Assembly: GCA_029775855.1 (NCBI GenBank)
Contig: JARVJZ010000002.1
Coordinates: forward strand, 224,001-288,000
DNA: 64,000 nucleotides
From: Nitrososphaeria archaeon
GTDB taxonomy: Archaea > Thermoproteota > Nitrososphaeria > Nitrososphaerales > JAAOZN01
Direction: 5' to 3'
Within the stretch, counting starts at the first letter, position 1; the number at the start of each line of letters is the position of its first letter. A model generated the notes under the pieces. The model saw only the letters and a list, made by a program, of their open reading frames with translations, was not told the DNA's origin and ran no database searches. The position numbers were made by a program, and so were the translations under genes. Below, one piece after another: positions 1 through 50,008 of this stretch.

Positions 1-1075
1 TGAGTATGTATTTAGCGAAATCCATTGAGGAGATTTTGAGCCTTTCTATGCTGGTTAGAACTAAGTTTGTGCCTTCTGGTTTTATGCAGAATAATCCAGG
101 AACTTCGTTGAATCTTTTGATCACATAGTCTCTGTTCTTCTGCAGTTTTGAGGTTGTTTGCTTTAGATGTCTTTTCTCCCATTCTTCTTCTAGGGCTGCT
201 GCTGCGCCGTATTGTATGAAGTTTGGCACGCCCATTGAACTATAGGTTAGTGGTAAGACCATTCTTTCGATTATCTCTTTGTTGGCTATGGCGTAGCCAA
301 GTCTGAAGTTCAGCATAAAGTATAGTTTTGAGAAGCTGTGTATTGATATGACTTTATCTCTTATTTCTTTGAAGGTTAATAATGAGGTGTGTTTTCTACC
401 GTCAAATGTAAACCCATCATAGACTTCATCGTGTAGAATTAGAAGGTCGTGTTCTTTGGCTAACTTAGCTATGCCTTTTAACTCATCTTCGGTTAAGACT
501 CTGCCGGTTGGGTTATGAGGAGAGCAGATGACTATCATCTTAGTCTTTGAAGTTATCTTCTCCTCAAATTTCTCAGAAGCGTGCTTAAAGTTATCTTCAT
601 AAGATAATGGTATAAAGACATTCTTGCCTGAAGCGAGCTCGACAGGTATGTCAAAGAAGAAGTTAGGTGTAACCATAATTACCTCGTCGCCTGGGTTTAT
701 GAGTGCTTGCATAGCGAAGTAGATCGCTTGCATACTCCCAGCTGTAACCAGCACTTCTGATTCAGGGTCAACTTCGACTCCTGTGAACCATTTAGCTCTT
801 TTAGATATGGCTTCTCTTAGTTTGCTTTCGCCAAGGAAGTGTGCAACCGCTCCGCTGGCTCTACTCTTTAGAGCCTTCAGCTGTTCATCCATAAGGTGCT
901 TTGGTGGTTTTGTTGATGATACGCTTTCAGCGTGTAGAAGTATTTTTTCGCCTTTTGCTAGCATGTTTGCAGCCATTTCCATAATGACTTCTGTGCCGAA
1001 GGGTTCTCCAGTCTCCTTAACGCTTTGAGTCCGCTTCCATAGATCGTGAATTCTTGTTGCAAAATAGTGATGCAT
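1..1075 (-). CDS. PLP-dependent aminotransferase class I/II (aspartate aminotransferase-like), 3' end runs off the window
   Basis: Not in the ORF track. Manual translation from ATG at 1075: MHHYFATRIHDLWKR...VLVTAGSMQAIYFAMQALINPGDEV...CSPHNPTG...ILHDEVYD...SFSKLYFMLNFRLGY (PLP-lysine motif). Confidence 0.85.
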   Translation of the reverse strand, partial: MHHYFATRIHDLWKRTQSVKETGEPFGTEVIMEMAANMLAKGEKILLHAESVSSTKPPKHLMDEQLKALKSRASGAVAHFLGESKLREAISKRAKWFTGVEVDPESEVLVTAGSMQAIYFAMQALINPGDEVIMVTPNFFFDIPVELASGKNVFIPLSYEDNFKHASEKFEEKITSKTKMIVICSPHNPTGRVLTEDELKGIAKLAKEHDLLILHDEVYDGFTFDGRKHTSLLTFKEIRDKVISIHSFSKLYFMLNFRLGYAIANKEIIERMVLPLTYSSMGVPNFIQYGAAAALEEEWEKRHLKQTTSKLQKNRDYVIKRFNEVPGLFCIKPEGTNLVLTSIERLKISSMDFAKYIL

Positions 1076-1187
1076 ATTTTAAGCCTCCAGCTTTGTGTTA
1101 TTTATAATTTTAAGATTTGAAAGGTAAAGTTGGGTTAGAAAGGTTTATACAAAAAGATGGGACGATGGTGCTTAGGTTAAAGGAGGG

Positions 1188-1754
1188 ATGAAAGAAATGA
1201 ACGGAGGCGAAGCGACTCAGCAGAAGGTTGAGAAAGAATCTCAAGAGCAGAGTGAAGAGGAGGTTCTTAGAGCCAAGGTCTCTCTTCTTGAAGAAAAGAT
1301 TAAAGAATGTGAAAAGAAGTCAGAAATTTATCTTACTCAACTTAAATACCTTCAAGCCGATTTTGAAAACTATCGTAAAAGATTTGAGGTTGAATTAGAG
1401 CGTAAAGTAGCACTTTTCAAAGAGGCTCTAATGCTTAACCTTATCCCTATAAAAGAGGATTTAGAACGAGCTATAGCGGCTCTGAGTGACAAGAATTCCT
1501 CACTGTTGGAGGGGGTGAAGGTGGTTGCTGAGAATCTTAAAGCTGTGCTCTCTAAGGAGGGGTTAGAGGAGATAGAGGCGTTAGGTGCCAAGTTTGACCC
1601 TAACCTACACGAAGCCTACTCTTATGTAAGCAAAGAAGACTGTGAAGATGGTGTTATAACTTCTGTGATAAGAAAAGGTTATAAACTGAACGGTAAAGTT
1701 ATAAGAGCGAGCTTAGTAGAAGTTAATAAAAGAGAAGAAGCAGCGCAGAATTAA
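1188..1754 (+). CDS. grpE: Nucleotide exchange factor GrpE
   Basis: ADFENYRKR, FDPNLHEA and RKGYKLNGKVIRASLVEV motifs; directly upstream of dnaK. Confidence 0.97.
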   Translation: MKEMNGGEATQQKVEKESQEQSEEEVLRAKVSLLEEKIKECEKKSEIYLTQLKYLQADFENYRKRFEVELERKVALFKEALMLNLIPIKEDLERAIAALSDKNSSLLEGVKVVAENLKAVLSKEGLEEIEALGAKFDPNLHEAYSYVSKEDCEDGVITSVIRKGYKLNGKVIRASLVEVNKREEAAQN

Positions 1755-1805
1755 TAATTTAATAGAATAAAATATAGATAGTAAGAAGTAGAGAGGGTGG
1801 TGGTT

Positions 1806-3644
1806 ATGGCAAAGATAATCGGAATAGACTTAGGCACCAGCAACTCAGCAGCAGCAGTACTGCTAGGAGGCAGACCAACAATTATACCCAGCGCAGAAGG
1901 GACTACTCTTGGAGGCAAAGCCTTCCCCTCAGTAGTAGCCTTCACTAAAGATGGGCAACTCTTAGTAGGTGAACCGGCTCGTAGACAAGCTATAACTAAC
2001 CCTGAAGGCACGGTCTTTGCAATCAAGAGAAAGATGGGCACGGACTATAAGGTGAGGATTTTTGGCAAAGAGTATACTCCTCAGCAGATTTCTGCGTTCA
2101 TACTTCAGAAGATAAAGCGTGATGCAGAAGCCTTCTTAGGTGAGAAAGTGGAGAAGGCGGTGATAACGGTTCCAGCCTACTTTAACGATAATCAGAGGCA
2201 AGCTACCAAGGATGCTGGTGAAATCGCTGGTCTTGAGGTTGTTAGGATCATAAACGAACCTACTGCAGCCTCCTTAGCGTATGGGTTAGATAAAGCGGGC
2301 AAAGAGCTGAAGATTATGGTCTTTGACCTCGGTGGTGGTACGCTCGATGTGACTATTATGGAGTTCGGCGGTGGCGTCTTTGAGGTTAAGTCAACAAGCG
2401 GGGATACACAGCTAGGCGGCACAGATATGGATAATGTGCTTACACAATACCTCATAGAGCAGTTTAGAAGGGAGACTGGTATAGACATCTCAAATGACCG
2501 CGTTGCCGTTCAGAGGGTTAGGGAGGCAGCTGAAAAGGCTAAGATTGAGCTCTCGACACTGCTTACAACCGAGATAAATATACCGTTTCTGGCCAGCGAT
2601 GCAAGCGGCCCTAAGCATTTAACGACTACTCTCACGAGGGCTAAGCTCGAAGAGCTCGTTAGACCTATTGTGGAGAAGTGTAGAGGACCAATGATGCAGG
2701 CTTTGGCTGATGCTAAACTTAGACCTGAGGATATAGATAAGATAATTCTTGTAGGTGGTCCTACCAGAATGCCTATTGTGAGAGAGTTCGTGAAGCAGGT
2801 TATGGGGAAGGAGCCAGAGCGGGGCATAGACCCTATGGAATGTGTGGCTATGGGTGCAGCTATTCAAGGAGGGATAATAGCTGGTGAGATAACTGACATA
2901 GTCCTCTTAGATGTTACTCCGCTTTCTCTTGGTGTTGAAACGCTCGGCGGCATATTTACGAAGATCATTGAGCGAAACACAACTATACCGACGAGGCGTA
3001 GCCAGATCTTTACTACAGCAGCAGACTTCCAGACTACAGTGACTATCCATGTGCTTCAAGGCGAGAGACCTATGGCTGCGGATAACATTTCACTAGGAAT
3101 GTTCCACCTTACTGGCATACCACCAGCCCCAAGGGGTGTGCCTCAGATAGAGGTCACCTTTGATATAGATGCAAACGGTATCTTGAATGTTTCAGCAAAG
3201 GATTTAGCGACTGGTAAAGAGCAGAAGGTCACTATTACTGCGGCGACAAAACTTTCGAAGGAAGAGAAGGAGAGGCTTATAAAAGAAGCTGAAAGGTTTG
3301 CTGAGGAGGACAAGAAGAAGAGGGAACTAGCTGAGGCTCAAAACGCTGCTGACTCCGTTTTATATACCGCTGAGAAGACTAAAGCAGATTTGGCATCAAA
3401 GCTTACGCAAGAGCAAGTATCTAAAATAGACCAAGCGGTCAAAAGCCTCAAAGACGCTCTACAGAGCAAAGATATACAGAAGATCAAGAGTAAGACAGAT
3501 GAACTCGCAAAAGTTCTGCAGGAGATAGGCAGCTATGTCTATCAGCAGACTGCTCAGCAGCAAACTGCTCAAGCTACAAAGCCCGAAGGAGATAAGAAGG
3601 TGGTCGACGCAGATTATAAGGTAGTCGATGAAGAGAAGCGTTGA
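1806..3644 (+). CDS. dnaK: Chaperone DnaK (Hsp70)
   Basis: [27 protein letters not shown] and DVTPLSLG motifs. Likely start is ATG 1806 (ORF track starts at 1797). Confidence 0.99.
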
Positions 3645-3650
3645 GCATAG

Positions 3651-4745
3651 TTGAGCGGCAAAAAAGACTACTATGAGATACTTGGAGTTCCTAGGAATGC
3701 GACTAAGGAGGAGATAAAGGCAGCTTATAGAAAGCTCGCGTTACAATATCATCCAGACAGAAATAAGTCGCCTGAAGCCGAAGAGAAGTTTAAAGAGATC
3801 TCTGAGGCTTATGCGGTGCTTTCCGACGATGAGAAGAGGGCTCAGTATGATCAATTTGGGCATATGGGTATAGGTAGCAGATACACTGCTGAAGACATCT
3901 TTAGAAACGCAGACTTTGAGAGCATATTCAGAGATTTAGGTTTTGACTTCGGCTTTGACGATCTCTTTTCTAGATTCTTCGGTGGTAGGCGTGTATATGA
4001 AGAAGAGAAGGGGAGAGATATTGCTATACCTCTGACGATAACACTTGAAGAAGCTGCATTTGGGGCTACAAAAGAGGTTCAAGTCCCTAGAACAGAGAGG
4101 TGTAATTCTTGCGGTGGAAGCGGAGCGAGACGGGGAACTTCGCCGACTCTATGCCCACAGTGTCATGGTAGGGGACAAGTGCAGTATACGCGTATGATGG
4201 GATTTGCGCAAATAATTACAACCACTACTTGCAGTGCTTGTGGTGGGCGCGGCTCTATAATTCAAAACCCCTGCCCAGAGTGTAAGGGTAGCGGTCTTGT
4301 TGATGTCTTCAGAAAGGTGAAGGTTGATGTGCCGGCTGGCGTTGATGAAGGCTTCAGCTTAAGGCTTAGAGGTGAAGGAGATGTGCATCCTCAAACTAAG
4401 AAGGCTGGAGACCTATACCTAACCATTCACATAGCTCCTCATAAATACTTCAAGAGGGAAGGAGATGATTTAATCTTTGAGACGCAAATAAGCTTTCCTC
4501 AAGCAGCTCTAGGCAGTGAAATAGCCATACCAACCCTAAACGGGCACACTTGGCTTAAAATACCTCCGGGCACACAAAGCGGCACCATCATCAGACTAAG
4601 AGGTAAGGGTATGCCCAAGCTTAGAAACAAATTTAGTCGTGGAGACCTTTTGGTTAAAGTTAATGTGAAGGTTCCAACCAAGCTCACCGAGAAGCAGAAG
4701 GTTCTCCTAAAGGAACTCGAAAAAGAGCTTGAGAAGAGTGATTAG
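3651..4745 (+). CDS. dnaJ: Chaperone DnaJ
   Basis: J domain with HPD, G/F-rich region, four CxxCxGxG repeats, C-terminal domain. Confidence 0.98.
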
Positions 4746-45300: not shown

Positions 45301-45795
45301 TTCAGTGCCGCCAGCTGAACGAATGGGGCCTGCGAAGTAAATTGAAGCATAGTTTGATCCATCTTCATTCTTTTTTATCTTCACCGAAGAGATCCCCTGT
45401 AAGGGTGCTACAGTCACACCCTCTGTAACAACGGCTAAGCCTACTCTAACACCCCAATCTAACGCCTCTTCTTTCTCAAAAAATCCAAATTTACCTAGAG
45501 CAACCTCTTCAGCCAAAATAAGCGCAGCTCTATCACTACTACCTTCTGACTCAAGCAGTTCCCTAAGCCTCTCACTAACCTTAATTCCTAAAAGAAGTTC
45601 AACGCGATCCGCTAAGTCATAAGCCAAAATAGACTCGACAGAAGTTGAAGGATCAAACCCTTTTGCTCTAGCCTTTAAAGCCACTTCATTTAGCTTCTTA
45701 AATTCAATTAACAACTGCTCCTGAAATTTCTTTTGCCTATCAGACATGGCGCCTCTAACATATTCTTTATTGAGCACATCTTCTTGTGACATCAT
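42334..45795 (-). CDS. polC: DNA polymerase D large subunit DP2 (no intein evident)
   Basis: AGPIRSAGGT, RVGRPEKA, KDGTIRFD, GLAPHTS, HSAKRRDCDGDGD, Zn fingers and a C-terminal PIP box QSDLLDYI. Confidence 0.97.
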   Translation of the reverse strand: MMSQEDVLNKEYVRGAMSDRQKKFQEQLLIEFKKLNEVALKARAKGFDPSTSVESILAYDLADRVELLLGIKVSERLRELLESEGSSDRAALILAEEVALGKFGFFEKEEALDWGVRVGLAVVTEGVTVAPLQGISSVKIKKNEDGSNYASIYFAGPIRSAGGTEAAFTVVLADRLRIKLGLDRYRCNCWGEDEVGRFIEELRIYEREVGNFQFKVSDEDIQLAISNLPVEINGVETDPVEVVVHRGMRRIETDRVRGGALRVLNDGIIGRGRKLAKLVNTLAIPGWDWLSKLKGGVQRDVEESRAESSHFHEIIAGRPALSFPNKVGGFRLRYGRCYNTGFSVVGMHPAVPVLVDYAVVVGTQVKLDVPGKAATVAFVDQLEPPIVKLNDGSVVRVESVESANQIRSSLRSILYLGDILISFGDFLENNARLIPSCYVEEWWAQELKKQIMERFGKISECSRMIGLDEQFLNALINKPLETRITCKTAFKLSEQLDIPLHPKYLYFWDLIQLKDVFKLRSALNFDDESCYFKLEDKEVKQILETLGVPHEFSEKGWVVKGEDAEALKRTLRLDKQIDLTGWEDTLSFLSKCAGVKIRQKSSWFVGVRVGRPEKAIMRKMKPPVHVLFPVGEQGGTKRDIVEAASKDTLYIELINAVCENCGQPSLSALCRVCGVAVKIIRTCPNCGRFFQGEVCPICRLSGVPYKTTAYPIKEELKRAEESLMCKANSPLKGVKSLMNFTRVPEDIRKGILRQKYNLSVYKDGTIRFDATNASLTHFKPNQIGASVEKLKELGYATDIHGRPLEDGEQILELFVQDVVIPIDAADHLLSVSKFVDEMLIKLYGLNPVYNFKDKEDLIGCLIVGLAPHTSVGVLGRVIGFTKTQVCYAHPFWHSAKRRDCDGDGDSIMLLLDLLINFSKEFLPEQIGGLMDAPLLLQPIILPREIQRQAHNFDCAAQYPLAFYEATLRREMPQAIANIIDIVKNRLNKKEQYEGFQFTHSTQHLVIKRARSSYSTLKSIVEKLEKQVELATLIKAVDPSTVIASVLKTHILRDIQGNLNAYTTQKFRCRRCGESFRRIPLRGSCLICGDSLLSTVSQNSIEKYVDIAAKMLNKFDVEEYLKMRFNILIKELEDLFGTKHNYIQSDLLDYINSE

Positions 45796-45806
45796 GTGAT
45801 ATCACA
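45795..45806. repeat. Palindrome TGTGATATCACA, copy 1
   Basis: Perfect 12-bp palindrome overlapping the GGGPS stop and DP2 start; a degenerate copy TGTGACATCA is adjacent at 45785-45794. Confidence 0.92.
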
Positions 45807-46563
45807 ATGCCTTAGCAGATTCGGCAGCGTTCACAATTTTGCTTAAAAGTTTCCTACCATCCTTTGACTCAAGCAGAGTGCCAATAACTAAGATATCGGC
45901 TCCGCATTTAACTAACTCTTCAGCAATTTCAGGCTTTGTTATTCCACCGCCAACGATTAGTACGCCGTCGTAGACTTTTCTAACAGCTTGAACCATTTGT
46001 GATGATACATGTGATATCACACCTGAACCAGCTTCAAGATATAGAAAGCGCATACCCAAATATTGACTAGCTAAAGCGTACATGGCTGCTATTTCTGGCT
46101 TTGAATTCGGAATACCTCTAGCTTTACCTATAAACCCAGCTGCGCCTCCTTCGCCAACTATAAGATAAGCCATCGGAATAGCTTCTAATCCGTACTTTTT
46201 AACTAGTAACGCGCCTAAAGCTTGAGCTTCGGTTATAAAGTAGGTATTCTCAGAGTTCAGGAGCGAGCTAAATAAAATAGCATCTGCACTAGGCACGACA
46301 CTATTAACATTACTTGGAAAGATTATAACAGGCTTTGCTACAGCTTTCTTTATCGCTCTTACGACCTTATCTAATTCTAGCTGATCCATTGCTGTAGAGC
46401 CGCCTACAAGTATCGCAGCCACGCCAGCTTTGTCTGCTTCCTTAGCCATCTTAGCAGCTTCTTGTTCGGTAAGACCTTCTGAGTCTATTAATCCGAAGCA
46501 GATAGCACCTCTCTTCTTAATTTCGTTTTTAATAAGTTGCTCAACACTATACTTATTGGTCAC
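45802..46563 (-). CDS. Geranylgeranylglyceryl phosphate synthase
   Basis: ILVGGS, ADAILFSSLLNS, LYLEAGSG and VGGGI motifs. Confidence 0.93.
   Translation of the reverse strand: MTNKYSVEQLIKNEIKKRGAICFGLIDSEGLTEQEAAKMAKEADKAGVAAILVGGSTAMDQLELDKVVRAIKKAVAKPVIIFPSNVNSVVPSADAILFSSLLNSENTYFITEAQALGALLVKKYGLEAIPMAYLIVGEGGAAGFIGKARGIPNSKPEIAAMYALASQYLGMRFLYLEAGSGVISHVSSQMVQAVRKVYDGVLIVGGGITKPEIAEELVKCGADILVIGTLLESKDGRKLLSKIVNAAESAKAL
46010..46021. repeat. Palindrome TGTGATATCACA, copy 2
   Basis: Perfect copy inside the GGGPS coding sequence; half-site TGTGAT just upstream at about 45998. Confidence 0.92.
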
Positions 46564-46964: not shown

Positions 46965-47366
46965 GTGCTTAAAATAATGCAACAAGAAAATAAGCTACTA
47001 CTCAGCCTAATTGAAGGTTCTACTCTCACAAATGCCCAAGTAGACACATTACTATGTGAAATAGAAGGTAAAGGTGCAGCAAAACAATTGAGAGAAAGGG
47101 CTGCCATGAGAGACAAAGAAAACATTACACTAGGCGCTTACTCAAGAACAAGAAAACAAGCATACATGAGAATCAGGAAGGTTCTAAAAACAGTACTTTT
47201 ACTATCGTATTTGGGCATCTTTTCACAAGACGGATTAAACACATTAGTAAAAGCAGCAGAATTAATAAGCAGAGTCAAAACAGCTAATCTAACTGATGAA
47301 GACATAATAAAATTAAACAAACTTATAGACGAAACATTAAGCAATCTAATTGTGATATCACAGTAA
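46965..47366 (+). CDS. Hypothetical origin-adjacent helical protein, possible HTH
   Basis: STLTNAQVDTL...RERAAMR...ITLGAYSRTRKQAYMRIRK resembles an HTH-type arrangement. Confidence 0.72.
   Translation: MLKIMQQENKLLLSLIEGSTLTNAQVDTLLCEIEGKGAAKQLRERAAMRDKENITLGAYSRTRKQAYMRIRKVLKTVLLLSYLGIFSQDGLNTLVKAAELISRVKTANLTDEDIIKLNKLIDETLSNLIVISQ
47351..47362. repeat. Palindrome TGTGATATCACA, copy 3
   Basis: Perfect copy in the last codons of ORF 46965-47366; two ATCACA half-sites follow at 47382-47394. Confidence 0.92.
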
Positions 47367-47396
47367 AGGTCATATACAAGCATCACATATCACAAA

Positions 47397-47930
47397 ATGA
47401 TGTTAGAACTAATAATAGCAAGCATAGCTTTACTATTAGCTATCGTCGCCCTATTTATCAACATAAAACGAAACCACAAGCAAAATAACGCAAACTATGA
47501 TGTGGTCTTGGCCCTTTCCGAGGAATATTCGCGAAGAATGAATAAGTTGGAAACTAGACTGGTTGATCTTCAAGTTAGATTGGATATTATAGAAACTAGG
47601 ATAGAGAAACCCACTCTTCATAGTGATGTAGAAGAAGTAAAGAAGATTAAAGGTTTCAATAATGTGATATCACAAAAGCCGCAAATTGATATCACAAAGT
47701 TTTCCAAGGGATTAAGTGAGTTTGAGTTGGCAGTACTTAGATGTGTTGCTGAAGGTGCGAAGACACCGAGTGAGGTTAAGGCTGTTGTTGGACATACCAG
47801 AGAGCATGTTGCTAGAGCGCTTAAAGATCTTTATGAGGAAGGTTTTCTTTTTAGGCAGGGTGGTAGACCATTTATTTATTCATTGTCTGATAAGGGTAGA
47901 GCTGTTCTTAGTGGGGATTCTCGTGCTTAA
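47397..47930 (+). CDS. Membrane-anchored coiled-coil/winged-helix protein
   Basis: N-terminal TM (LIIASIALLLAIVALFI), heptad region (MNKLETRLVDLQVRLDIIETRI), C-terminal wHTH (LSEFELAVL...TPSEVKAVVGHTREHVARALKDLYEEGFL...PFIYSLS). Confidence 0.8.
   Translation: MMLELIIASIALLLAIVALFINIKRNHKQNNANYDVVLALSEEYSRRMNKLETRLVDLQVRLDIIETRIEKPTLHSDVEEVKKIKGFNNVISQKPQIDITKFSKGLSEFELAVLRCVAEGAKTPSEVKAVVGHTREHVARALKDLYEEGFLFRQGGRPFIYSLSDKGRAVLSGDSRA
47663..47696. repeat. Palindrome TGTGATATCACA, copy 4 (47663-47674), plus a 10/12 copy (47685-47696)
   Basis: Both lie inside ORF 47397-47930, with starts 22 bp apart. Confidence 0.92.
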
Positions 47931-48305
47931 TGTGGTCTTTCTGTAAATATATCCTGTTCCTATTCTTACTCTTTTTAGCATTCTTTGGTCGACTAATCTG
48001 TTTAGGTAGGTGGATAATGTTGTGAGCTTTATAGGTTGTTGATATTTGCTTTCGTAGGCTTCTTGTAAGTTTGCTGTTGTGAAGTTAGAGGCTGGAAATT
48101 CTTCATCTATTAATGCGCATACTTTTGAGAAGATTGTGTCTACTTCAGTTTTTTCCTCTTCCCTTTCGCCGCCTAGAAACTCATATACTTCTATCAATTT
48201 ATGCATCTTCTCTTTCGATAGAGGGCCTTCTATTGTAAGAGAATATTTACTACCCTCCTCGTCTGTAAATTCAATCTTCATCCTTTTTGGCATATTTTGC
48301 CACAA
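47880..48305 (-). CDS. Hypothetical protein with C-terminal winged helix, divergent from cdc6 across the origin
   Basis: N-terminal beta-rich segment RMKIEFTDEEGSKYSLTIEG; wHTH FTTANLQEAYE...IKLTTLSTYLNRLVDQRMLKR...YIY. The start may be ATG 48293. Confidence 0.78.
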   Translation of the reverse strand: MWQNMPKRMKIEFTDEEGSKYSLTIEGPLSKEKMHKLIEVYEFLGGEREEEKTEVDTIFSKVCALIDEEFPASNFTTANLQEAYESKYQQPIKLTTLSTYLNRLVDQRMLKRVRIGTGYIYRKTTLSTRIPTKNSSTLIRQ

Positions 48306-48464
48306 TAAGATATCAAGTTCAACTTATACATTGAAGGTGTGAAAAAGTGAACAAGTTTGTCAAACCATCATTTACTGAGCCAAATGTAATGTTATTAACT
48401 ACTCTATTACATTATTCACTATTTTACAATTATCAAACTTTTCGCTAACAATCAAGAATATGAT

Positions 48465-48485
48465 TTGCAGTGGAAATGGAGGGGT
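48465..48485 (+). promoter_or_regulatory. ORB element 1
   Basis: TTGCAGTGGAAATGGAGGGGT versus the ORB consensus TTCCAGTGGAAAC-AAAGGGG. Confidence 0.8.
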
Positions 48486-48528
48486 GTGCCAAAACACCTT
48501 TTAACTATTAAATAGGGCATATTTTTGG

Positions 48529-48549
48529 CTCCAGTGGAAATAAAGGGGT
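48529..48549 (+). promoter_or_regulatory. ORB element 2
   Basis: CTCCAGTGGAAATAAAGGGGT, a near-consensus ORB with G-string. Confidence 0.9.
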
Positions 48550-48601
48550 GCCTGTGAACGGTAAGTGCAAGTATATTCACAAATACTAGATAAGAAGGGG
48601 T

Positions 48602-48622
48602 ACCCCTTTGTTTCAGCTGGAG
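48602..48622 (-). promoter_or_regulatory. ORB element 3 (inverted)
   Basis: Reverse complement is CTCCAGCTGAAACAAAGGGGT, facing ORB2. Confidence 0.88.
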
Positions 48623-48769
48623 ATTTCAATTAGGCTTCTTCTTGCTCTTTGTGTGACCGAATTGACATAACAGTCATTATTTTTGCCCAAAACAGAGATA
48701 TAATTTAGATAAAGAAACAAGTACGGGATAGACCAAACAATTCCTCATAATTAACTATTTAGGGGATAC

Positions 48770-48790
48770 TTCCTATGGAAGCGATGGGGT
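48770..48790 (+). promoter_or_regulatory. Degenerate ORB abutting the cdc6 start
   Basis: TTCCTATGGAAGCGATGGGGT immediately before GTG 48791. Confidence 0.55.
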
Positions 48791-50008
48791 GTGCGGCTAA
48801 ACTTGGGTAGTGAAGCAGATCAAAAAAAGATAATTAACTCAATATTTACCAAAGCAGCTGAAGGGTCAAGAATAATAAAGGATGCTGAACCCTTAAGACC
48901 TGATTATGTGCCACCTAAACTTCTTTTCAGAGATGAACAAATTACTGCTGTAGCTCAAATCGTTGCACCTATTCTTAGGAAGCAGCGCTGCTCTAATGTG
49001 CTACTTTACGGTAAAACAGGTACTGGGAAGACTGCTACGGCTCGTCTGGTTCTTAATGAGCTTAGGTTGAAGGCTCAAGAGTTTAAGATTCCTGTTTGTT
49101 TATGTTACACTAATTGTAGACTTGCTGGGACTGAGTACAGGGTTGTTCTAGATCTTGCGGAAAGTGTTGGTGTTAAGATACCCTTCACAGGTTTATCCTT
49201 AGGTGAAGCGTATAGTAGGGTTGCTGCTCAAATATCAGATAATAACTTAAATTTTCTAGTAGTTTTGGATGAGATTGATTATTTGGCTAAAAATTCAACA
49301 GGTAACCTTCTCTATGAGTTAACACGCTCACATGAGAAGTTAACCCCTGGTGGTATATCGTTAATCGGGATCTCCAATGATCTTCGTTTTAAGGAGATGC
49401 TTGATCCGCGTGTTTTGAGCAGTTTAGGTGAAGAAGAGATGGTTTTTCCACCTTATTCAGTCGAAGAGCTTAGACTAATTTTAAAGGAGCGTGTTAAGCT
49501 AGCTTTCAATGATGGCTGTATAACTGAGGGTGCAGTAAACTTATGTGCAGCATTAGCCGGTTCTGAACACGGTGATGCAAGAAGAGCTGTCGATTTACTT
49601 AGGGTGTCTGCTGAAGTCGCTGAGCGTGAAGGAAAGGCTAGGGTAGAAGAACATCATATTAAGATTGCTCTGCAGAAGATGGAGCAAGACCGATTGATAG
49701 AAGCTTTAAGAGTTTTACCGCTTCAAGCTAAGTTGATTCTCTTATCAGTCATAAAATCAGAAGACTCCTCCTCTACAGGCTCTATTTACCAAACATACCT
49801 TAGATTAAGTTCTAGAGTTGGTGTTGAAACACTCACTGCAAGAAGGGTGAGCGGTATACTTTCCGAATTAGATATGCAGGGTTTAATTTCGGCTAATGTT
49901 TTAAGCAAGGGTAGGTATGGTAGATCTAAACGGGTCTCTTTACTTGTATCTAAGCATCTTGTTCTAGATGTTTTAACTCAAGATCCGATTATTGCTGCTG
50001 TAATTTAG
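48791..50008 (+). CDS. cdc6: Orc1/Cdc6 replication initiator
   Basis: LRPDYVP, YGKTGTGKT, VLDEID, GISND, HGDARRAVDLLR and C-terminal wHTH ELDMQGLI...GRYGRS. Confidence 0.97.
   Translation: MRLNLGSEADQKKIINSIFTKAAEGSRIIKDAEPLRPDYVPPKLLFRDEQITAVAQIVAPILRKQRCSNVLLYGKTGTGKTATARLVLNELRLKAQEFKIPVCLCYTNCRLAGTEYRVVLDLAESVGVKIPFTGLSLGEAYSRVAAQISDNNLNFLVVLDEIDYLAKNSTGNLLYELTRSHEKLTPGGISLIGISNDLRFKEMLDPRVLSSLGEEEMVFPPYSVEELRLILKERVKLAFNDGCITEGAVNLCAALAGSEHGDARRAVDLLRVSAEVAEREGKARVEEHHIKIALQKMEQDRLIEALRVLPLQAKLILLSVIKSEDSSSTGSIYQTYLRLSSRVGVETLTARRVSGILSELDMQGLISANVLSKGRYGRSKRVSLLVSKHLVLDVLTQDPIIAAVI

Follow-up and report, generated by a model that had tools for sequence, protein, structure and literature searches.

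The gene that we refer to as TMwH lies in a stretch of 64,000 nucleotides (nt) from a Nitrososphaeria archaeon (contig JARVJZ010000002.1; "the window" below means the whole of this stretch), next to a predicted replication origin (oriC), and the features of the locus are listed in Table 1. The gene belongs to a block with the order DP2-GGGPS-Elf1-orf133-TMwH-wH141-(oriC)-Orc1-DP1, which was found in 20/20 of the relatives' loci and in most of 80 loci (~12 kb each) from Nitrososphaeria and Bathyarchaeia, kept out of 537 confirmed contig stretches. A palindromic element, TGTGATATCACA, is concentrated around TMwH, and the analysis points to the encoded protein as a candidate membrane-anchored binder of this origin-adjacent DNA.

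An AlphaFold2 model of TMwH was built on an alignment of 23 family sequences, with a mean pLDDT (predicted local distance difference test score) of 76. In this model, a single continuous helix spans residues 2-70, the pLDDT falls below 50 over residues 72-101, where gaps are also frequent in the family alignment, and the C-terminal part consists of helices at 108-118, 124-131 and 135-148, strands at 151-154 and 160-163, and a last helix at 165-172. A three-helix bundle followed by a beta-hairpin wing, the mark of a winged helix, is thus seen in the model, and it is also indicated by the searches: Pfam HTH_27 matched with 23.1 bits (gathering cut-off 22.2), and Foldseek aligned the domain with many MarR-type chains at E values of 1.4e-4 to 1e-3. 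The alignment columns R135, E136, H137, R140, R153, P158 and Y161 are invariant in the 23 sequences, and [ST]REH was found in 167/167 proteins of a larger family set (18 proteins plus 149 from the profile search). Within the long helix, positions 48, 55 and 62 are occupied by L, I, V, M or F in 23/23 sequences, positions 44, 51, 58 and 65 are hydrophobic or aromatic, and extra hydrophobic positions of this heptad segment are 56, 60 and 64.

For the N-terminus, a 19-residue window with a mean Kyte-Doolittle hydropathy of at least 1.6 was taken as the mark of an anchor, and such a window is present in 164/167 family proteins, a median of 6 residues from the N-terminus. The mean net charge of these proteins is -1.35 before the window and +2.18 after it. 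By the positive-inside rule, such a charge bias predicts the orientation in the membrane, so the N-terminus of TMwH is predicted from hydropathy and charge to be an N-out/C-in anchor, with the winged helix in the cytoplasm. A Sec-type signal peptide was considered and rejected, because the start is acidic instead of positively charged and the hydrophobic stretch of at least 19 residues is followed by positive charge. An earlier sequence-only reading of this gene had described an N-terminal transmembrane helix, a heptad-like segment, a variable linker and a C-terminal winged helix, and the family data bear out all four; a cleaved signal peptide or an extracellular winged helix, which it had named as grounds for giving up its proposal of a tether, are made improbable by the same acidic start and following positive charge.

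Four exact copies of TGTGATATCACA occur in the window, against 0.15 expected, and a search of the whole genome (1,507,471 bases) returned the same four copies, at 45795, 46010, 47351 and 47663, and 0 copies of the reversed control pattern. The four copies span 1.9 kb around the TMwH gene. Each of them has a degenerate partner, at 45785 (10 bp), 45998 (12 bp), 47383 (32 bp) and 47685 (22 bp), respectively, the last of which retains an intact right-hand 10-mer only (47687-47696). Of the two palindrome copies that had been reported in the linker codons, the one at 47663 is therefore exact and the 22 bp between the two starts are confirmed, but the one at 47685 agrees at only 10/12 bases. When half-site pairs 7 bp apart were counted over the genome, 4/4 inverted pairs and the 1/1 direct TCACA-NN-TCACA pair fell in the TMwH locus; the two remaining 7-bp arrangements have 2 and 3 genome copies (~1.8 expected by chance), none of them in the 1.9-kb locus. 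Three of the four exact copies are coding, all in one frame as V-I-S-(Q/H). The positions of the sites are conserved in 3/3 other genomes of the genus, in two of which (G002 and G003) the second GGGPS site scores 11 or 12/12, and the listed strain differences include none in the eight sites, which carries no weight at a divergence of ~1%. All sites sit 0.8-3 kb from the predicted origin and its repeats.

Two other origins of the palindrome were tried and rejected, namely an RNA hairpin, for which the perfect 12-mer permits a stem of at most 4 bp, and avoidance of a restriction site (GATATC), in place of which relatives have GACGTC and GACATC variants. As a separate observation, the stop codon TGA of GGGPS lies inside one palindrome and the DP2 start codon begins on the last base of that palindrome (45793..45806), so that the site links one gene directly to the next.

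By our own reading, a TATA-like element, CATATACA, is located ~20-26 nt before the TMwH start codon. The exact site at 47351 lies just upstream of this element, and the direct pair TCACATATCACA lies between the element and the start codon. The short distance of the TATA-like element from the start codon suggests that the TMwH mRNA is leaderless. Sites that flank a TATA element have the geometry typical of archaeal repressors. A scan for sigma-70-type promoters and terminators was uninformative for an archaeon. The one sequencing run with a metatranscriptomic label is flagged as 'probably DNA' and covers GGGPS and orf133 with small contigs only.

The same element was then followed across relatives. 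In 41 related genomes, the perfect TGTGAYRTCACA was found at 37 places, 25 of which lie within 5.3 kb of the TMwH homologue (10/20 outside the genus), and the control pattern at 5 places. Within the 80 loci, 90/92 matches at 11/12 bases or better are located upstream of the recognition-helix codon, with one exception at the helix codon and one at ~+5.3 kb, and 0 matches of this quality fall in wH141, the origin or orc1. The start-to-start spacing of TGTGA and TCACA pentamers peaks at 7 bp, with 171 pairs in 115 loci versus 2 for the reversed pentamers. The palindrome is one arrangement of this family-wide element, which consists of TGTGA pentamers 7 bp apart, direct or inverted: 68 of the 171 pairs are inverted and 58 + 41 are direct, both being common, and the everted TCACA-NN-TGTGA is nearly missing (4/171). 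As for placement, 125 pairs are found 400-1200 nt before the helix codon, a range corresponding to the 5' region of the gene and the orf133 end; the GGGPS position accounts for another 23, and 2 pairs are downstream of the helix codon. In many relatives, half-sites are found directly upstream of the start codon. The linker sites are not the core of the system, whose universal feature is a TGTGA array just upstream of the gene. In 18 loci from other Thermoproteota families, half-site density is 11.8 per kb upstream of the gene versus 1.98 per kb elsewhere, and the co-occurrence of motif and gene, which the sequence-only reading had proposed as a check, is seen across the phylum.

In Bathyarchaeia, a perfect palindrome straddles the orf133 stop codon, with the TGA inside TGTGA, and is mostly non-coding; a further TCACA follows 2-3 bp on in 12/14 loci shown. 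At loci L066-L124 (e.g. L075:5319-5337), the stop TGA falls within a perfect TGTGACGTCACA with the further TCACA, after which ~330 bp of non-coding DNA precede the open reading frame (ORF) of the homologue.

TMwH is a large single-copy family of Thermoproteota without a name in curated families, and its matches in Pfam and NCBIfam are generic winged-helix ones only. At E<=1e-3 the profile search returned 926 cluster representatives, 696 of them reaching E<=1e-10; their lengths are all within 140-260 amino acids (aa). A homologue was found in 35/41 related genomes, and in a sample of the phylum 88/151 genomes had a match at E<=1e-8, which was single-copy in 87/88. The anchor is present in most Bathyarchaeial homologues. 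After four duplicate rows had been dropped, 96 distinct loci from Nitrososphaeria and Bathyarchaeia were available for the linkage to Orc1, which lies beyond the TMwH gene in 87 of them, at a median distance of 1006 nt (range 513-3980). The remainder comprises five stretches that end too early, two that have room and carry no Orc1, and two without a tblastn hit for TMwH. Among the 18 loci of other Thermoproteota families, Orc1 is nearby in 9. The linkage of homologues to the origin, on which the sequence-only reading had staked its proposal, hence stands for the two classes and was not seen within the 12-16 kb covered at the other 9 distant loci.

Several homologues deserve separate mention. 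A homologue in G021 (C10:205226-205774; loci L019/L036) contains one in-frame TAG and is flanked by good sites (L036 8461, 8800, 10249). At L128:6565-7094 and L138:6100-6920, homologues form a tight pair with an orf133 homologue off Orc1, and the upstream intergenic region of ~500 bp holds the palindrome and TGACGTCA-type repeats. An anchor-less form that consists of coiled coil and winged helix occurs at L125:7060-7692, L126 and L134, where it is paired with wH141, away from Orc1.

The position of the gene "beside oriC", as it had been put, depends on the 485-bp intergenic region upstream of orc1/cdc6. This region carries three direct and one inverted repeat resembling the origin recognition box (ORB), CAGTGGAAAT..AGGGGTG, together with an AT-rich stretch. 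Such repeats and an AT-rich stretch beside an initiator gene are the described anatomy of archaeal origins in a published account (PMC4010727). From the repeats, the AT-rich stretch and the adjacency of orc1, positions 48306-48790 are predicted to be oriC, so that the claim stands as far as origin features go, for an origin that is predicted from them.

Table 1 Features of the TMwH locus, with positions in the window
Feature	Position	Strand	Basis
TMwH gene (177 aa; anchor, coiled coil, linker, winged helix)	47397..47930	+	ORF, family alignment, AlphaFold2 model, profile search
Predicted N-terminal membrane anchor, ~aa 3-23, then KRNHK	47403..47465	+	Hydropathy and charge bias; predicted N-out/C-in
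Heptad coiled-coil segment, aa 41-69, conserved LVDLxVRLD	47517..47603	+	Hydrophobic positions in 23-sequence alignment
Variable disordered linker, aa 72-101; codons hold sites 47663 and 47685	47610..47699	+	pLDDT <50; gap-rich alignment columns
Winged helix-turn-helix, aa 108-172	47718..47912	+	AlphaFold2 model, Foldseek, HTH_27
Start of recognition helix, R135-E-H-V-A-R140	47799-47816	+	R135, E136, H137, R140 invariant
Exact palindrome TGTGATATCACA in linker codons N-V-I-S-Q	47663..47674		Kept in place in three other genomes of the genus
Degenerate partner ATTGATATCACA, 10/12 bases, start 22 bp after the 47663 start	47685..47696		Motif scan
Exact palindrome over last orf133 codons V-I-S-Q, 35 bp upstream of TMwH start codon	47351..47362		Motif scan
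Direct half-site pair TCACATATCACA, ends 3 bp before TMwH start codon, downstream of TATA-like CATATACA	47383..47394		Own reading
Exact palindrome inside GGGPS gene, codons G-V-I-S-H	46010..46021		Motif scan
Degenerate partner TGTGATGATACA, 10/12 by scan scoring, 12 bp from 46010 site	45998..46009		Motif scan
Exact palindrome at GGGPS/DP2 junction	45795..45806		Holds GGGPS stop TGA, abuts DP2 start codon
Adjacent half-site TGATGTCACA in first DP2 codons, 10 bp from 45795 site	45785..45794	-	Motif scan
orf133, conserved upstream partner gene, all-alpha product	46965..47366	+	tblastn in 55/96 loci; model pLDDT 92
wH141, convergent conserved gene between TMwH and oriC	47880..48305	-	91/96 loci; Penicillinase_R 23.7 bits vs 22.6 cut-off
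Predicted oriC: ORB-like repeats 48468, 48532, 48776, inverted 48599-48622; AT-rich ~48380-48460	48306..48790		Repeat and AT features
orc1/cdc6 initiator gene	48791..50008	+	Pfam Cdc6_C 3.9e-23, Cdc6_lid 7.1e-22

The invariant residues at the start of the TMwH recognition helix were compared with those of CRP, which reads the pentamer TGTGA. In E. coli CRP, the residues R180-E-T-V-G-R185 read T-G-T-G-A, Arg180 contacting G2 and Arg185 together with Glu181 contacting the G4:C4 pair, as described in PMC11253593. The R-E-H-V-A-R of TMwH is a CRP-type R-E-x-x-x-R, in which the three base-reading residues of CRP correspond to three invariant TMwH residues, and the invariant bases of the element are the G's of TGTGA. 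In a phmmer search, the TMwH helix was placed in register with a Crp/Fnr-family regulator (SRETVNKAL) and CooA, and Vfr was also matched (E 0.16-0.3); Pfam HTH_Crp_2 and NCBIfam CRP gave weak matches over the same TMwH residues. Since this invariant R-E-x-x-x-R agrees with the TGTGA readers of CRP and the motif co-occurs with the gene, TMwH appears to be the likeliest binder of its own sites.

It is also conceivable, but in our judgement improbable, that another protein of the module binds the TGTGA sites, either the orf133 product or the BlaI/CopY-like wH141, and that TMwH has another binding partner or binds DNA without sequence preference. Both neighbours are conserved and have near-invariant putative DNA-reading helices. 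The wH141 protein has a beta-rich N-domain and a winged helix in which the helix ...STYL(S/A)R is nearly invariant, and its matches in Pfam and NCBIfam are weak ones to Penicillinase_R/CopY only, the former passing the cut-off. Operators of BlaI and MecI are short palindromes with a 2-bp centre, which would suit this binder. For orf133, no match was found in Pfam or NCBIfam, and none by Foldseek at E<=0.001; its residues 18-88 align with LuxR and sigma-70 region 4 domains at VIA-align Z values of 5.3-6.5, under the caution line of the tool, and it may hold a helix-turn-helix of this kind. The overlap of the palindrome with the orf133 stop codon in Bathyarchaeia also favours an involvement of orf133. 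The half-site clusters remain, however, where either gene is missing from the locus: without orf133 (L125, L126 and L134), 6, 6 and 3 half-sites lie in the 400 nt upstream versus ~0.9 expected, and clusters persist upstream of homologues without wH141 at L127 and L137, and at L128 and L138, which lack wH141 as well. The TMwH homologue is the sole constant partner of the sites, and R-E-x-x-x-R, the TGTGA reader in CRP, is found in the TMwH helix only. A further observation on orf133 is that, in Bathyarchaeial loci, ~2.5 kb with NAD-synthase-like and nitrilase-like ORFs (so named from the look of their translations) lie between Elf1 and orf133 (L075:2639-4347).

Combining the protein with its sites, we propose the following mechanism. 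The short acidic N-terminus of TMwH would lie outside the cell and the remainder in the cytoplasm, where the heptad coiled coil would probably oligomerise the protein, and unstructured tethers of ~30 residues would carry the winged helices, each reading one TGTGA unit. The targets would be TGTGA units 7 bp apart, direct or inverted, with TGTGATATCACA as the inverted form. Flexible tethers with one unit per winged helix would account for the coexistence of direct and inverted pairs at 7 bp and for partners that lie 10, 12, 22 and 32 bp away. The targets would be clustered at the gene's own promoter and, in the genus, also within the codons of its linker, in GGGPS and where GGGPS meets DP2, and binding should repress TMwH's own, probably leaderless, promoter. 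Being confined to the membrane, TMwH would bring the nearby origin flank to it on occupying these sites. In our view it is very probable that TMwH, held in the membrane, binds DNA of its own locus beside the origin, and we give a probability of roughly 55% to the whole reading, in which TMwH is a membrane-anchored, autoregulating, site-specific DNA binder that would hold origin-adjacent DNA at the membrane. The function under selection may be the tether, the autoregulation or control of the GGGPS-DP2 unit, and we regard chromosome tethering as its role as an attractive idea that is less likely than not. A more far-reaching possibility, which we put forward tentatively, is an archaeal chromosome-to-membrane attachment of the type foreseen by the replicon model, in which a transmembrane protein would hold on to TGTGA heptads that form a centromere-like array by the single origin. 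If this were true, freshly replicated origins would become attached to the envelope, whose growth, or else the Cdv division machinery, would move them apart; the arrangement would be at least as old as the common ancestor of Nitrososphaeria and Bathyarchaeia, and orf133 and wH141 would couple attachment to initiation.

A number of observations weigh against holding of origin-adjacent DNA by TMwH. The CRP-like match has low scores (E 0.002 to 0.3) and depends on three residues, and the half-site centres are 7 bp apart in the palindrome versus 11 bp in CRP sites, so a CRP-like rigid dimer cannot be the mode of binding. The conserved neighbours orf133 and wH141 may also bind DNA. The 12-mer at 11/12 bases or better is absent from most loci of Nitrosopumilaceae and Nitrososphaeraceae, which have, upstream of the gene, differently arranged TGTGA, CGTGA and TCACA units. 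The sites are neighbours of the origin and not part of it, the position of the array upstream of the gene suits autoregulation as well as, or better than, tethering, and no clear TATA box was seen upstream of DP2. Finally, Orc1 is absent within 12-16 kb in 9/18 distant loci (L125-L128, L134, L135, L137, L138 and L140), and the TMwH form of the L125/L126/L134 type has no anchor and a long Pro/Thr-rich linker; a tether therefore cannot be the universal role of the family.

An unlikely explanation is that TMwH is an ordinary transcription factor stored at the membrane, whose winged helix is freed or activated by a signal such as proteolysis of the linker or a change in the membrane, tethering of DNA being incidental. 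Its targets would then be, with as little likelihood, its own gene, the neighbours (orf133, wH141 and the GGGPS-DP2 unit) and possibly weaker sites at other places. Such a regulator would account for the universal presence of a site cluster upstream of the gene and for the two sites on either side of the TATA-like element, and the long linker of low pLDDT would be accessible to a protease; the anchor-less forms of one lineage and the location away from Orc1 in some lineages would also be expected. Yet TMwH has no external or sensor domain, with a median of 6 residues outside, and the genome offers no other good site, so that the regulon would shrink to the locus. Of the four exact sites, three are coding, two of these in a transcription unit without an evident promoter, and the distance of ~1 kb to orc1, kept across two classes, is not explained by autoregulation alone.

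The codons that carry the sites indicate at which level selection acts. At GGGPS positions 182-185, which come after the conserved EAGSG, V-[I/T]-S-[H/Q] is seen in 17/83 rows (14 distinct genomes), and in 17/17 of these rows Val is encoded by GTG and Ser184 by TCA; the conserved Ser180 of the same rows is encoded by TCA in 5, TCT in 11 and TCC in 1. In the other 66/83 rows, unrelated residues occupy this loop, e.g. A-K-Q-N. Because the codons GTG and TCA are fixed and the loop residues appear only together with the palindrome, the site has imposed the protein sequence and not the reverse. Selection is thus seen to act at the DNA level, the site rewriting the GGGPS loop, and the same holds for the TMwH linker, where V-I-S-Q and D-I-T-K form islands in an otherwise variable family alignment. 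That the palindromes are functionless by-products of coding constraint or shared ancestry, as the common V-I-S-(Q/H) frame of the coding copies might suggest, is very improbable in view of this loop with its fixed synonymous choices, the mostly non-coding site in Bathyarchaeia, the excess over control pairs at 7 bp, and the confinement of the motif to this locus in the genome.

Chromosome positioning and segregation in archaea outside Sulfolobales are largely unknown, and TMwH offers a concrete candidate. The available part of a review of archaeal chromosome segregation (PMC7617429) names only SegAB and ParAB homologues and nothing specific to Thaumarchaeota. The sequence-only reading had known of no characterised archaeal protein in a tether role, and our literature search, which left subscription-only papers outside, agrees with it, having found neither a described TMwH family nor an archaeal origin-to-membrane anchor. 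Its family is single-copy and conserved in both the ammonia-oxidising Thaumarchaeota and the Bathyarchaeia, its DNA element is defined, a three-residue reading code is predicted, and homologues are present in the cultured genera Nitrosotenuis and Nitrososphaera according to their records. The locus also illustrates a rarely documented effect, in which a putative protein-binding DNA site dictates amino acids (in the GGGPS loop, the orf133 C-terminus and the TMwH linker). Even if TMwH turned out to do no more than regulate its own gene from the membrane, it would still define a conserved DNA-binding module of three genes next to archaeal origins, which no curated family covers.

Among known DNA-binding families, CRP/FNR proteins share with TMwH the winged helix, the recognition helix R-E-x-x-x-R and the TGTGA half-sites, but TMwH is membrane-anchored and its half-sites are 2 bp apart instead of 6 and often direct. 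Membership in the CRP family was rejected, as TMwH has no nucleotide-binding domain: no Pfam or NCBIfam match to a cyclic nucleotide monophosphate (cNMP)-binding domain was found, and the N-terminal part is occupied by the transmembrane helix and the coiled coil. The resemblance to CRP may be convergent. MarR, TrmB and Lrs14 proteins share the DNA-binding fold (Foldseek E ~1e-4 to ST1710, BldR and SlyA; Pfam matches to TrmB, HTH_27 and MarR), but TMwH lacks the flanking helices through which MarR dimerises and has in their place an N-terminal anchor, then a coiled coil and a disordered tether. The MarR family proper was likewise rejected, since these flanking helices are absent from the model and Pfam MarR_2 scores 15.3 against a cut-off of 27.

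ToxR, CadC and the archaeal ArnR are membrane-integrated regulators with a far-side sensor domain or several transmembrane segments and with targets elsewhere in the genome. Like TMwH, such membrane-fixed regulators can meet their target DNA only at the membrane; unlike them, TMwH has ~2-6 residues outside and its targets at its own locus. A ToxR/CadC-like type, in which an OmpR-type winged helix at the cytoplasmic N-terminus is joined by one transmembrane helix to an external sensor, was rejected because the topology of TMwH is reversed and so little of it lies outside. A second group of systems, ParB/parS, Sulfolobus SegB, AspA of pNOB8 and the omega protein of inc18 plasmids, which binds 7-bp heptads, resembles TMwH in having short direct or inverted repeats at the binder's own gene, near the origin in the case of chromosomes. 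AspA (5k5q, 4rs8) was among the Foldseek matches of TMwH, a generic winged-helix similarity. TMwH differs from these centromere binders in having neither a ParB nor a ribbon-helix-helix domain, and a membrane anchor is foreign to their systems. A ParB/parS type was rejected, as no ParB-type match was found for TMwH in Pfam or NCBIfam and no NTPase gene lies in the conserved block, the rest of the genome not having been searched for ParA.

The nearest functional analogues of TMwH, judged by analogy, appear to be the bacterial RicO and RacA. RacA of Bacillus subtilis is an origin anchor that reaches the membrane through its partner DivIVA. In RicO of Staphylococcus aureus, a DNA-binding domain is joined to a coiled coil and an amphipathic helix for the membrane, and its nine 18-bp sites are spread over ~700 kb around oriC, according to its description (bioRxiv 10.64898/2026.03.06.710092). 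Set side by side by description, both proteins resemble TMwH in uniting DNA-binding domain, coiled coil and membrane-targeting element. The sites of the bacterial anchors are confined to the origin-proximal part of the chromosome, and the role proposed for TMwH is likewise to keep origins at the cell periphery; its candidate sites lie 0.8-3 kb from the predicted oriC in this genome, and 9/18 distant loci show no Orc1 in the 12-16 kb covered. In TMwH, the domain order is reversed, and the membrane element is predicted to be a true transmembrane helix, unlike the amphipathic helix of RicO or the partner of RacA. Whereas RicO is bacterial and has its nine sites dispersed over ~700 kb, the archaeal TMwH would use 4-8 sites within 1.9 kb, centred on its own gene.

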